Source of the DNA: an uncultured Candidatus Saccharibacteria bacterium
Lineage (GTDB): Bacteria; Patescibacteriota; Minisyncoccia; Phycocordibacterales; UBA918
Length of the DNA stretch: 64,000 bases
Direction of reading: 5' to 3'
Assembly (NCBI GenBank): GCA_964402035.1
Contig: CAYOAM010000001.1
Coordinates: 243,558 to 307,557 of the forward strand
Shown here: piece by piece, positions 54,826 through 58,530 of the stretch
Layout: the number at the start of each line of letters is the position of its first letter
Numbering within the stretch: the stretch's first letter is position 1
Translations under genes and position numbers: made by a program
Notes under the pieces: generated by a model
Databases searched by the model: none
Told to the model about the DNA's origin: nothing
The model's input: the letters and a program-made list of their open reading frames with translations, nothing else

Positions 54826-55053
54826 CTACTGCATTAAAGTAAATCTAGACATGCGTTGTCCATCAACTTCGATCTCTTTTACAAATTCTGCATACGGGCG
54901 TACCCAAACCGTACCTGACTTGTAGTCACCAGAGTCTTGCTGTGATTCATAGACAACTACTGGCTCTTGCGTCTCTTCCAATAATCCCAGCGCTATAACC
55001 TTATAGAGGCCGCCCTTATAGTGCTGATACATGCCTAAACGTACATCAAACAT
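54826..55053 (-). CDS. DUF1653 domain protein
   Basis: YQHYKGGLYKV...VVVYESQQ...WVRPYAEF matches the DUF1653 consensus. Confidence 0.6.
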   Translation of the reverse strand: MFDVRLGMYQHYKGGLYKVIALGLLEETQEPVVVYESQQDSGDYKSGTVWVRPYAEFVKEIEVDGQRMSRFTLMQ

Positions 55054-55057
55054 ACTA

Positions 55058-55636
55058 TTAATATTTACGGACTACTCCACGCACAACAGCGGCAATGCGC
55101 AAGCTATGCTTGGGATAAATCGGTTTAAAATTTTTATTTGCGGGTTCAAGCCATGTACGATCTCCCAATTTTTTCAGAAACTTAAGGGTCCATTCACCAT
55201 CAACTTCAGCAACAACGATGTCTCCATCACGCGCAGTACTTGCGCGTTCGGCCACCACCAAATCACCTTCTTCAATATGCACTTCTATCATCGAATCACC
55301 TTTTACTTCAAGCAAAAAAGTGCGGCCACGATCAGCTATGAGGTAGCCATCCAAGCTCATAGTATCCAGTGCTTCTGCATCAACCATTGTCGGTGAACCA
55401 GCTTGTACCAACCCCAGCAGAGGAAGCTCAGAAAGGCGGTCGGTGGGTATAAGTCTTCCCTGCCCATCCTTGCTCACAACCCCATCATCAACCAACTTGG
55501 CGACCAACTTGTACACAGCATTTTTTGATTTAAAACCAACCAGTTTTAAAATCTCTTGATACGAGGGCATGCGTCGCTCTCGTTCGTAGAATCCAATTAT
55601 TTTTTTCTTATAGTCTTGATACATGTTTATCTCCAT
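55058..55636 (-). CDS. lexA: LexA-like transcriptional repressor (S24 peptidase), paralog 1
   Basis: N-terminal winged HTH (FKSKNAVYKLVAKLVDDGVV), Ala-Gly cleavage site (VQAGSP), Ser nucleophile GDSMIE and Lys in TLKFLKK. Confidence 0.85.
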   Translation of the reverse strand: MEINMYQDYKKKIIGFYERERRMPSYQEILKLVGFKSKNAVYKLVAKLVDDGVVSKDGQGRLIPTDRLSELPLLGLVQAGSPTMVDAEALDTMSLDGYLIADRGRTFLLEVKGDSMIEVHIEEGDLVVAERASTARDGDIVVAEVDGEWTLKFLKKLGDRTWLEPANKNFKPIYPKHSLRIAAVVRGVVRKY

Positions 55637-55827
55637 GAGGGGATGAAAACTCGGAAGAGGCGAGAAATGGAACGACGAGTGTCTTCCCTACGAAGCTGAG
55701 CAAGCAAGCTTTTGTGGCGGCGGGCTTCTCTTCGGTAATCAGCATCTTGCATGATCTTGCGATCGATGATGCCATTGAGCTTTTGTATTTCGATATTGAG
55801 AGCCTTAAGATATTCTTGCTTGTTCAT
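55627..55827 (-). CDS. small hypothetical protein co-transcribed with lexA1 downstream of a LexA box
   Basis: 66-aa ORF. Its TAA stop overlaps the lexA1 start region (TAAACATG coupling). Lies between the LexA-box promoter and lexA1. Predicted helical and basic. Confidence 0.4.
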   Translation of the reverse strand: MNKQEYLKALNIEIQKLNGIIDRKIMQDADYRREARRHKSLLAQLRREDTRRSISRLFRVFIPSWR

Positions 55828-55857: not shown

Positions 55858-55886
55858 AGTATAGGTGAACGGACGTTCACCGTCAA
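55858..55886 (-). promoter_or_regulatory. SOS promoter with LexA box in the spacer: TTGACG-[GTGAACGTCCGTTCACC]-TATACT (minus-strand sense)
   Basis: Plus-strand ggtgaacggacgttcacc at 55864-55881 is a GAAC-N4-GTTC Cheo-type box. Minus-strand -35 TTGACG (55881-55886) and -10 TATACT (55858-55863) with a 17-nt spacer. Confidence 0.7.
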
Positions 55887-55915
55887 GAATTTGTACACTT
55901 TTTCTTGTGGATAAC

Positions 55916-57223
55916 CTAGTCAACTTCACCCAACATAGGGATTGCCAGGCGTTTACGAGCAGTCTCACCTTTAAAAAGAAGGGTCGCGCGACGACTGACT
56001 TCCCCACGCTCCCCTACATGCGCTCCAAGCTTCATTGCTTTAAAACTGGAACCGAGAAAAATAGCATGCTTTCCATATTTTTCTGAAAGCGCATCCACAC
56101 TTTCAAAGATACGGGTAAGTGTCTCTGAACGCTGCACGGTGCCAAAAAGATCGAGCTGTTCTGTTGATACCTCTGTAAGCCCCACAAAGGTGACTCCGGT
56201 TGCGCGATATGTTGTACCGGTCTTAAAGATGCTGCTAAATCGTTCTCCTAATGCTTGCAGAATATCGTGTGGGTTGTTGGTAGGATGCGACAACTCAATC
56301 TCTATTGAGTGAAATCTGAAATCTTGTGTTTTCAAAAATACCAATGCACGCGCAGAGACCAGATGCCATCGGCGCATTTTGATACATGCATTTTCAATAT
56401 TTTTTGATAGCTGAGAAAAGACAAATGACACATTGGGAGACGGCGGTGTAAATGTCTTTGTCTTACTAATAGACTGAAAGCTTTTTCTTCCTTCGATATC
56501 AAGTGGAAATACTTTGATACCATTGAGCTCCTGCCAAATCTCTAGATATGGCTTCGAAAGCATACTGCGCACCCACCCTTCATCACGCTCCGCAAACTGT
56601 AGCGCAGTTGTGATGCCATACTTGGTGAGCAACGCCGCTGTTTGGGGCCCTATCCCCCACACTGATCCAATCGGTAATTTTGCCAAATATACTCCTGCAT
56701 CGCGTAGTGGTATCACCGTGAGGCCGGATGGTTTTTTCCATTTTGATCCAAGTTTGGCAAGCACCTTGGTTGCAGAGAGTCCAATAGAAAATGTCATACC
56801 AAGTTCTGTATCGAGATCATGTTTAATCCGCTCTGCAATCGTCGCATAGGAACAATGATGCACTCGTCGCATGCCACCAAGATCAGCAAAACACTCATCA
56901 ATACTGTACTCTTCTACCGCAGGCGTATACCGACGAACGATATCGTACATGCGCTGAGAAAAGAGACAGTACGTCTCATAATCAGACGGAAGTACAATTG
57001 CTTTTGGACATAATTTTTTGGCTTCAGAAATACGCATACCTGTTTTGACCCCGCACGCTTTTGCTTCATAGGTGGATGCAGATACAATACCCCGCTCTTT
57101 TCCAGTAATGACTGGCTTACCACGAAGTGCTGGATTTTTGGCAACTTCACACGATGCAAAAAAAGAATCTCCGTCGATATGGAGAATGGCGTGTGGAAAT
57201 GAGCTCAATGATCCCCAACTCAT
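55916..57223 (-). CDS. dinB: Y-family DNA polymerase (DinB/Pol IV-like)
   Basis: ILHIDGDSFFASCEV catalytic motif. Palm/finger/little-finger length and SIDECFAD motif. Confidence 0.9.
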   Translation of the reverse strand: MSWGSLSSFPHAILHIDGDSFFASCEVAKNPALRGKPVITGKERGIVSASTYEAKACGVKTGMRISEAKKLCPKAIVLPSDYETYCLFSQRMYDIVRRYTPAVEEYSIDECFADLGGMRRVHHCSYATIAERIKHDLDTELGMTFSIGLSATKVLAKLGSKWKKPSGLTVIPLRDAGVYLAKLPIGSVWGIGPQTAALLTKYGITTALQFAERDEGWVRSMLSKPYLEIWQELNGIKVFPLDIEGRKSFQSISKTKTFTPPSPNVSFVFSQLSKNIENACIKMRRWHLVSARALVFLKTQDFRFHSIEIELSHPTNNPHDILQALGERFSSIFKTGTTYRATGVTFVGLTEVSTEQLDLFGTVQRSETLTRIFESVDALSEKYGKHAIFLGSSFKAMKLGAHVGERGEVSRRATLLFKGETARKRLAIPMLGEVD

Positions 57224-57225
57224 AG

Positions 57226-57801
57226 CTAATACTTGCGCACCACGGCAGTGACGACCGCTTCAATTTTCAAATCTTCTTTTGGATACATGCGTGGATATTT
57301 TTTGTTTGCCGGCTCGAGGAAATATTTTCCTGCGTCCTTTCTTAGATACTTGAGTGTGTATTGCCCATCGACTGCCGCAACCACAATCTGCCCCACTTTG
57401 TAGGTCGCTTTTCGTTCGACAATAACCATGTCTCCCGGATGAATACCCGCATCGATCATGGAATCGCCTTTTACCTTAAGTATGTAACTAGCTTCTTTAT
57501 TTGGGGTGAGATACTCATCAAAATCCATAACATCAAGCAGTTCTTCCTCTGCCGGAGACGGAAAGCCCGCCTCAACAAGACCCAAAAGCCGGGTGCCCCG
57601 CAGCGCCCTTCCAGGCGAGAGATGGCCCTTAGTATCCTTTTCCAAGACCCCGCTCTCTACAAGCCGTTCTATGAGCTTATAGACGGCGTTTTTAGACCGA
57701 AATCCCGTCATATCCATGATCTCCTGGTACCCTGGCATACGTCGAGTACGCTCATAAAAAGAGATGATTTTGTCGCGGTAGGTGTGTTGGCGTGTTTTCA
57801 T
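57226..57801 (-). CDS. lexA: LexA-like transcriptional repressor (S24 peptidase), paralog 2
   Basis: HTH (FRSKNAVYKLIERLVESGVL), Ala-Gly site (VEAGFP), GDSMID Ser and Lys in TLKYLRK. Only 2 nt upstream of dinB. Confidence 0.85.
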   Translation of the reverse strand: MKTRQHTYRDKIISFYERTRRMPGYQEIMDMTGFRSKNAVYKLIERLVESGVLEKDTKGHLSPGRALRGTRLLGLVEAGFPSPAEEELLDVMDFDEYLTPNKEASYILKVKGDSMIDAGIHPGDMVIVERKATYKVGQIVVAAVDGQYTLKYLRKDAGKYFLEPANKKYPRMYPKEDLKIEAVVTAVVRKY

Positions 57802-57809
57802 ACAGGTGA

Positions 57810-57838
57810 AGTATAGGTGAACTATAGTTCACCGTCAA
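57810..57838 (-). promoter_or_regulatory. SOS promoter with perfect palindromic LexA box in the spacer: TTGACG-[GTGAACTATAGTTCACC]-TATACT, leaderless geometry
   Basis: Plus-strand ggtgaactatagttcacc at 57816-57833 is a perfect 18-bp palindrome. Minus-strand -35 at 57833-57838 and -10 at 57810-57815. Only 8 nt lie between the -10 and the lexA2 ATG. Confidence 0.75.
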
Positions 57839-57915
57839 TAAAAACACTGGTACAACTAAAACGAGAAAATGGCGGCATCCAAAATGGATACCACCCTTTT
57901 CTAAAACTACAACTC

Positions 57916-58530
57916 CTACCCCTGCTTATTCATCCCCTTCCAAAAGAAAGCAGTTCCTGATGCAAGAAATGCGAGTCCCAAGAGCCACGTAAGTCCACCA
58001 AACACTGAACCAAATCCCCCACCCATCATACCGCTATGTCCACGTCCTCCCATCATACCCCAATTGTCGTCACTACCCTTTCGCGCGTCTCCACTAAAAC
58101 CACCTCCCATATGATCTCCCATCATTGGTGAAAAATATTCTGCACCTTTTGGAAGAGCAGCTCCCGTATCACATCCACTTAAGCGTTTCCCCATCGCAAT
58201 ATGCATCTGTTCTTCCCCTTCTTCCCCAAGCCTGTCTGCCATCATGGTATTCATTGCCTCATGATTGGCACCCATCATGTTACCCATAAAGAAATCAGCC
58301 AGTACATCAAAATCCTCATCTTTCAAATCTTTGCAGGTCACCTGTTTGCTCTGCAATTTGTCCCACACTGCCTTCCCCTCTGCTTCTTCTTCAGAAATAG
58401 TCTTTGATCCCGTGTTTGCCGTTGTCGTACCCATAACCTTGTTATTCATACCACCCATCATCTGCGCATGTGCAGGAATACCAATGGCAAATGCCATGAA
58501 TAACGGGACCACCATGAATATTTTTTTCAT
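57916..58530 (-). CDS. secreted Met/Gly/His-rich protein with C-terminal TM anchor (possible metal-binding)
   Basis: Signal peptide MKKIFMVVPLFMAFAIGIPAHA. Repeated MMGG/MxxM/HxxM motifs. C-terminal hydrophobic helix. Confidence 0.5.
   Translation of the reverse strand: MKKIFMVVPLFMAFAIGIPAHAQMMGGMNNKVMGTTTANTGSKTISEEEAEGKAVWDKLQSKQVTCKDLKDEDFDVLADFFMGNMMGANHEAMNTMMADRLGEEGEEQMHIAMGKRLSGCDTGAALPKGAEYFSPMMGDHMGGGFSGDARKGSDDNWGMMGGRGHSGMMGGGFGSVFGGLTWLLGLAFLASGTAFFWKGMNKQG

Follow-up and report, generated by a model that had tools for sequence, protein, structure and literature searches.

The stretch analysed here, referred to as the window, comprises 64,000 nucleotides (nt) of an uncultured Candidatus Saccharibacteria bacterium (contig CAYOAM010000001.1 of assembly GCA_964402035.1, positions 243,558 to 307,557 of the forward strand) and harbours a gene cluster, entirely encoded on the minus strand, that includes two paralogues of the SOS repressor LexA. 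The first unit of the cluster consists of lexA2 (57226..57801), whose product was assigned by profile and homologue comparison as a winged helix-turn-helix (HTH) and S24 peptidase protein with a UmuD-like C-terminal domain, and of a gene encoding a Y-family translesion polymerase of 435 amino acids that resembles DinB/Pol IV (55916..57223; IMS, IMS_HHH and IMS_C domains). The second unit opens with a conserved short open reading frame (sORF) of 66 codons (55627..55827), recognized from its relatives and an AlphaFold model that predicts two long helices, and continues with lexA1 (55058..55624; 188 amino acids from the second ATG), which passes the NCBIfam lexA equivalog cut-off. Each unit is preceded by a promoter whose spacer is occupied by a palindromic box. 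We consider it very probable that these are two adjacent, self-repressed SOS operons, with promoter spacers filled by LexA boxes, and that the architecture is an old one maintained under selection.

Two exact copies of the module TTGACG-GTGAAC-N4-GTTCACC-TATACT lie on the minus strand, at positions 55858-55886 (site 1, before the sORF and lexA1) and 57810-57838 (site 2, before lexA2 and the polymerase gene). In minus-strand sense, site 1 (55886..55858) is TTGACGGTGAACGTCCGTTCACCTATACT, with the layout TTGACG-GTGAACGTCCGTTCACC-TATACT, and site 2 (57838..57810) is TTGACGGTGAACTATAGTTCACCTATACT, with the layout TTGACG-GTGAACTATAGTTCACC-TATACT. At site 2, the promoter scan places the -35 hexamer TTGACG at 57833..57838 and the -10 hexamer TATACT at 57810..57815, both on the minus strand and both supported by the relatives described below; the predicted operator 2, GGTGAACTATAGTTCACC, spans 57816..57833 and overlaps the -35 hexamer by 1 nt. 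At site 1, the same scan places TTGACG at 55881..55886 (minus strand), 30 nt past the polymerase stop codon, and TATACT at 55858..55863 (minus strand), 30 nt upstream of the sORF ATG; the predicted operator 1 reads GGTGAACGGACGTTCACC on the plus strand (55864..55881). The spacer measures 17 nt at both sites, and the 18-base-pair (bp) box GGTGAAC-N4-GTTCACC corresponds to the entire spacer plus the final base of the -35 hexamer. With its TATA centre, site 2 is a perfect 18-bp palindrome, whereas site 1 has perfect arms around a non-palindromic centre (GGAC on the plus strand, GTCC on the minus strand). A first-pass annotation, made from the letters of this DNA, had described both modules, the box filling the 17-nt spacer, the perfect palindrome at the lexA2 copy and the ggac centre at the lexA1 copy; all of these descriptions hold exactly, and the box additionally takes the last base of the -35 hexamer.

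These sites stand out strongly from their surroundings. When up to 3 mismatches are allowed, the 29-nt pattern matches nowhere else in the window, and both copies match with 0 mismatches; the mean number of matches in 100 dinucleotide shuffles is 0. The core GAAC-N4-GTTC is exact at both sites and has no third occurrence in the 64 kb. No sigma-70-like site of the region ranks higher in the promoter scan than these two, each of which (TTGACG-17-TATACT) matches 10 of 12 hexamer positions and has a 17-nt spacer. Near-consensus promoters of this kind number only three in the whole window, including both sites, which fits a design of strong promoters under tight repression. A position weight matrix built from 47 sites, all taken from other genomes, gives 29.3 bits to site 2 and 26.8 bits to site 1, compared with 4.0 bits for the next best position in the window and 16.8 bits for the best score among 50 shuffles. 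Site 1 may be a slightly weaker operator than site 2, because its score is lower and its centre GTCC departs from the N-A-T-N preference of the relatives.

The layout is widely conserved. Homologues of LexA2 number in the thousands, the named ones coming from Parcubacteria, Paceibacterota, Kaiserbacteria and other Patescibacteria, and the best matches beyond the same species share about 75% identity; the window itself is assigned to a Patescibacteria (Parcubacteria/Paceibacterota) genome. A genome scan yielded a set of 63 Patescibacteria lexA loci (618 kb in total), in about 50 of which a palindrome fills the same promoter spacer. The core GAAC-N4-GTTC occurs 60 times in these 618 kb; 51 of the occurrences lie in lexA promoters, where the context is TTGAC-n-GGTGAAC-N4-GTTCACY-TATAMT. 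When 49 related sites are aligned on the box, the flanks GTGAAC...GTTCAC are invariant and the -10 element TATAMT keeps a fixed register 1 nt past the box, while the TTG of the -35 element is found in two registers, producing spacers of 17 or 18 nt in about equal numbers. The same alignment reveals a conserved A/T pair 7-8 nt past the -10 element, where transcription would be expected to start. No further box is present within 6 kb of lexA in the relatives, nor elsewhere in the 64-kb window.

Loci lacking GTGAAC indicate which protein reads the box. These loci retain an arm-N4-arm palindrome in the spacer, with half-sites such as TAGAAC or CAGAAC, CCGAAC, GTGTAC, TAGTAC and TAGAGC, and in them the lexA gene downstream encodes a changed recognition helix as well. 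A canonical helix (.S[KR]N[AS][AV][YFHS][KR]) is accompanied by the GTGAAC half-site in 48 of 48 loci, and an altered helix by an altered half-site in 10 of 12, one of the exceptions having an unreadable helix. This covariation involves at least five different variants (Fisher p = 9e-10, a value uncorrected for phylogeny). The view that both boxes are LexA operators, placed within sigma-70-type promoter spacers ahead of lexA genes, is well supported, since the layout recurs in the relatives and the half-site follows the helix. The first-pass annotation had read the boxes in the same way, and the roughly 50 of 63 lexA loci and the covariation back this reading in silico. Likewise, the presence of the box in the promoter of lexA itself predicts autoregulation. 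Promoters of variant specificity are found at L008, L009, L011, L018, L023, L031, L044, L050, L052 and L063, and such natural pairs of helix and half-site are a possible resource for mapping the base contacts of LexA.

Both proteins carry the domain and the residues expected for self-cleavage. The S24 peptidase family PF00717 matches LexA1 with E = 2.5e-25 and LexA2 with E = 1.9e-27; in an alignment of 13 sequences that includes both paralogues, the Ala-Gly cleavage site (A78-G79) and the Ser/Lys dyad (S114 and K151) do not vary. LexA1 and LexA2 have the recognition helix SKNAVYKL in common, so each would be expected to bind both operators. LexA1 passes the TIGR00498 model (124 bits for a cut-off of 110.95) and, among solved structures, matches Thermotoga maritima LexA with 77 bits and UmuD with 53.8 bits, which makes it the more LexA-like of the two. 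LexA2 aligns to Escherichia coli LexA over residues 4-188 (66.2 bits); among solved structures, E. coli UmuD matches it best (67.1 bits), over residues 74-188 only. As its score on the NCBIfam UmuD model (NF007621) is 109.1 for a cut-off of 110 and a full winged-HTH domain appears to be present, LexA2 is, by these scores, UmuD-like in its C-terminal domain only, and this domain is nearer to UmuD than to LexA.

Taken together, these features allow a working scheme to be proposed. Each operon would be driven by a near-consensus sigma-70-type promoter whose 17-nt spacer is filled by the GTGAAC-N4-GTTCAC box, so that a LexA dimer on the box would exclude RNA polymerase from both hexamers, with LexA1 and LexA2 cross-regulating the two operons. 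Upon DNA damage, RecA-stimulated self-cleavage at the Ala-Gly bond, as suggested by the conserved residues, would free both promoters, and the translesion polymerase and the small protein would be produced in a burst until freshly made LexA accumulates and re-establishes repression. Several observations weigh against this scheme. No recA was found in the window by motif search, and the covariation test takes no account of phylogeny. LexA2 falls just under the cut-off of the NCBIfam lexA model (108.8 for 110.95) and under that of the Pfam family LexA_DNA_bind (PF01726; 18.5 for 23.7). In addition, the lexA2 start codon lies 8 nt from the -10 hexamer, the modal gap in the relatives being 6-7 nt, so its mRNA could have a leader of 1-2 nt. 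Lastly, no terminator is found between the polymerase gene and the promoter of site 1, and read-through may therefore feed the sORF-lexA1 operon too. Likewise, the motif search of the window detected neither uvrA nor any further SOS gene.

The identity of the two modules had been taken by the first-pass annotation as a sign of recent duplication of the promoter-operator unit, and the alternative that fares best is that duplication or gene conversion recently copied or homogenized the 29 nt between the two promoters of this genome. All 25 defined positions are equal in the two copies, including some that vary among relatives, such as TTGACG (elsewhere TTGACA, TTGACT or TTGCAG) and ACC (elsewhere ACT); the copies also share the 17-nt rather than the 18-nt register and TATACT rather than TATAAT, both of which are variable in the relatives. 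Recent events of this kind are difficult to reconcile with the sequence around the modules and with the proteins they precede. Alignment of the flanks of both copies finds nothing alignable outside the 29 nt, starting directly at their edges. The linked LexA proteins are only 53% identical and belong to separate orthologous groups: LexA is closer to LexA2 in 27 of 28 lexA-polymerase loci and closer to LexA1 in 23 of 24 sORF-lexA loci, as well as in one additional locus where the polymerase gene is distant. The low identity and the existence of distinct orthologues for each type of operon indicate that LexA1 and LexA2 are old paralogues. Furthermore, the identical 25 bases precede sORF-lexA1 in other genomes (L204, L205, L019, L033, L043, L061, L113, L134 and L153), which points to purifying selection as the source of the identity within the window. 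The 17-nt form precedes lexA-polymerase elsewhere (L017 and L101), and a deletion of 1 nt in TTGACGGGTGAAC, the form present in L005, would yield that of the window. The 18-nt register of the nearest lexA2-type loci (L001-L006) leaves a slight chance that local homogenization took place; overall we hold recent copying to be improbable. Judging from these comparisons, the identity of the modules is the outcome of long-term selection on an old architecture.

A related scenario, in-situ tandem duplication of an ancestral sORF-lexA-polymerase operon, was considered and rejected, as the nearest sORF-lexA1 relatives (L202, L204 and L205) have no adjacent lexA2-polymerase operon. This makes the tandem arrangement a peculiarity of the genome studied here, and adjacency is no evidence for duplication. 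Fused sORF-lexA-polymerase operons behind a single promoter of this type are found in L020 and L173, and the two operons of the window may descend from a fused operon of this kind.

Less plausible still is that a different regulator recognizes the palindromes, or that they act as RNA hairpins or terminators, their proximity to lexA being incidental. The sequence GGTGAAC-N4-GTTCACC does form terminator-like hairpins, with runs of A and T, in unrelated metagenome contigs, and since site 1 sits 30 nt after the polymerase stop codon, a read-through RNA could fold it. In lexA loci, however, the box is invariably flanked by the -35 and -10 elements and precedes the likely start of transcription; neither copy in the window is followed by a run of T, and neither is listed by the terminator scan. 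A known RNA element or terminator was accordingly rejected, there being no Rfam match in the region. A regulator other than LexA would leave the covariation of half-site and LexA recognition helix to be explained, and we regard this whole family of readings as very unlikely. A metagenome scan for GGTGAAC-N4-GTTCACC returned 120 matches, mostly chance sites or A/T-flanked terminator hairpins in other organisms, and those in promoter context all adjoin lexA, the sORF or the polymerase gene, save one. This site, on metagenome contig L103 (9714-9747), has the same promoter-operator module, CTTGACGGTGAACATTTGTTCACCTATAAT; no homologue of LexA, the sORF or the polymerase was found nearby, and the 2 kb downstream contain no Rfam match, nor is there a plus-strand open reading frame of more than 60 amino acids within about 1 kb of the site. 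Finally, that two similar palindromes should have arisen in promoter-like sequence by chance, a view favoured by nothing beyond the shortness of the motif, is next to impossible given the empty shuffles, the matrix scores far above the best shuffle and the retention of the module across dozens of genomes.

The operon at site 2 is predicted to be a transcription unit of its own. A terminator-like hairpin (57871..57895, minus strand; terminator scan) ends the upstream gene, so the lexA2 promoter would open a new transcript. The lexA2 ATG is found 8 nt past the -10 hexamer, and the intervening TCACCTGT has no Shine-Dalgarno motif; for these two reasons the lexA2 mRNA is probably leaderless or nearly so. 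About 20 lexA-polymerase loci have their start codon 6-10 nt past the -10 element, which suggests that leaderless geometry is a trait of the family. Among the sORF-lexA loci, the same short geometry is seen in 4, and the others have AT-rich leaders of 28-60 nt. A crude count over the open reading frames of the window finds a Shine-Dalgarno-like motif in 2 of 63 and a leaderless-like promoter geometry in 4. The second gene of the operon follows closely, the polymerase ATG being 2 nt after the lexA2 stop codon. In NCBIfam, the best matches of the polymerase are Pol IV models, every one of them below its cut-off.

The pairing of a UmuD-like protein with a polymerase raises the question of a double function for LexA2. 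In its intact form, LexA2 could repress its own lexA2-polymerase operon, while the UmuD-like fragment released by RecA-stimulated cleavage could act as an accessory subunit of the co-translated polymerase. We put this forward tentatively, as a possible but rather doubtful role. Three observations point to it: a signature of the type AG-FP[ST].. is present in 28 of 28 polymerase-linked LexA proteins (FPSPAE in 17) and variable in the sORF-linked ones, UmuD is the best structural match of LexA2, and the polymerase start codon lies 2 nt from the lexA2 stop codon. If LexA2 did combine both functions, its operon would be a self-contained damage-sensing mutagenesis cassette; the second arm, cross-repressed and with the slightly weaker operator, would then be made up of LexA1 and the small protein.

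In the operon at site 1, the promoter does belong to the lexA1 operon, as the first-pass annotation had it when attributing the site to lexA1; the first gene is nonetheless the conserved sORF, and lexA1 comes second. A GGAG motif is located 6 nt upstream of lexA1, and an independent gene call likewise gives a protein of 188 amino acids. The sORF stop codon TAA falls between this Shine-Dalgarno sequence and the lexA1 ATG, which suggests that the translation of the two genes is coupled. Homologues of the 66-amino-acid protein form 308 cluster representatives at E ≤ 1e-3, and nearly all of the 150 matches listed are 43-107 amino acids long. They share the motif E[IL]xxLNxxIDxKI...Y..EA.RHK. The AlphaFold model of the protein, with a predicted local distance difference test (pLDDT) score of 84, has two long helices, and its tail is basic and hydrophobic. 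Searches for a Pfam, NCBIfam or PHROG family and for a meaningful fold match in the PDB were negative, and on the basis of its homologues the protein defines an uncharacterised family of small proteins. Speculatively, it could be an SOS effector, for example a division inhibitor. The sORF is left unannotated in at least one public gene call (L081).

Both operons are of a known kind, namely LexA autoregulation through a Gram-positive-type GAAC-N4-GTTC box. The core, and its presence in the lexA promoter, are shared with the LexA (DinR)/Cheo box of Bacillus, Clostridium and their relatives, and the winged HTH, the S24 domain, the Ala-Gly site and the Ser/Lys dyad of Gram-positive-type LexA are likewise seen in the LexA proteins of the window, with the DNA-binding domain of LexA2 scoring below its Pfam cut-off. 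The consensus of the Bacillus LexA box has the flanks CGAAC...GTTCG, whereas those found here are GT-GAAC...GTTC-AC(C), a lineage-specific variant of the core. GAAC-N4-GTTC is also the LexA operator of Bacillus subtilis (PMC4234289). In contrast to the Gram-positive-type system, a single box in a fixed position fills the whole spacer here, and two paralogous LexA proteins share one recognition helix. Placing an operator between the -35 and -10 elements is a known mode of repression, exemplified by some E. coli SOS promoters and by synthetic promoters with lacO in the spacer. As in those promoters, a repressor site that fills the spacer should render repressor and RNA polymerase mutually exclusive; unlike in those promoters, the layout here is lineage-wide and persists while the operator changes with the repressor helix. 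Similarly, the lexA2 operon resembles umuDC in that the gene for a Y-family polymerase directly follows that for a self-cleaving S24 protein. It differs from umuDC in that LexA2, unlike UmuD, appears to have a full LexA-type winged-HTH domain and in that the scores of the partner polymerase favour DinB/Pol IV over UmuC. In Acinetobacter, the UmuD homologue UmuDAb acts as a LexA-like SOS repressor, which illustrates that a UmuD-like body and repressor activity can combine in one protein (PMC4807011, PMC11332147).

The picture that emerges is of a promoter built around its repressor site, in which the position of the operator would be frozen throughout the lineage while its sequence shifts with the recognition helix. 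The apparent SOS regulon is very small and centred on the translesion polymerase. LexA-binding motifs and a small, translesion-centred regulon were reportedly described for the Patescibacteria superphylum by Sanchez-Osuna et al. in 2017. Full-text literature searches, whose coverage leaves out that work, did not find a description of the Patescibacteria motif. PMC8565304 and PMC7739468 cite the analysis of the SOS network of Patescibacteria, which deals with the lineage and the regulator considered here (Sanchez-Osuna, Barbe and Erill, Environ Microbiol 2017). The present analysis leaves the general picture of the SOS response unchanged; as leads it provides LexA2 with its UmuD-like domain, the probably leaderless transcripts and the small protein encoded with LexA1. 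In addition, it offers a promoter and operator, strongly predicted to be damage-inducible, for the Patescibacteria, which do not grow in isolation.

Some features of the neighbourhood complete the description. Upstream of the lexA2 promoter, positions 57916-58530 (minus strand) encode a protein of 204 amino acids with a signal-peptide-like N-terminus and Met/Gly-rich repeats (MMGGM, GMMGGG), for which no Pfam or NCBIfam match was obtained. Between about 53300 and 53900, the genes switch from the plus to the minus strand in a convergent arrangement and the sign of the GC skew flips there too; a replication terminus is probably located in this interval, 2-4 kb from the lexA cluster. The downstream neighbour of the sORF-lexA1 operon is a DUF1653 gene (54826-55053, minus strand), and a gene of this family lies near sORF-lexA1 in three relatives as well, downstream in L202 and upstream in L205 and L206.

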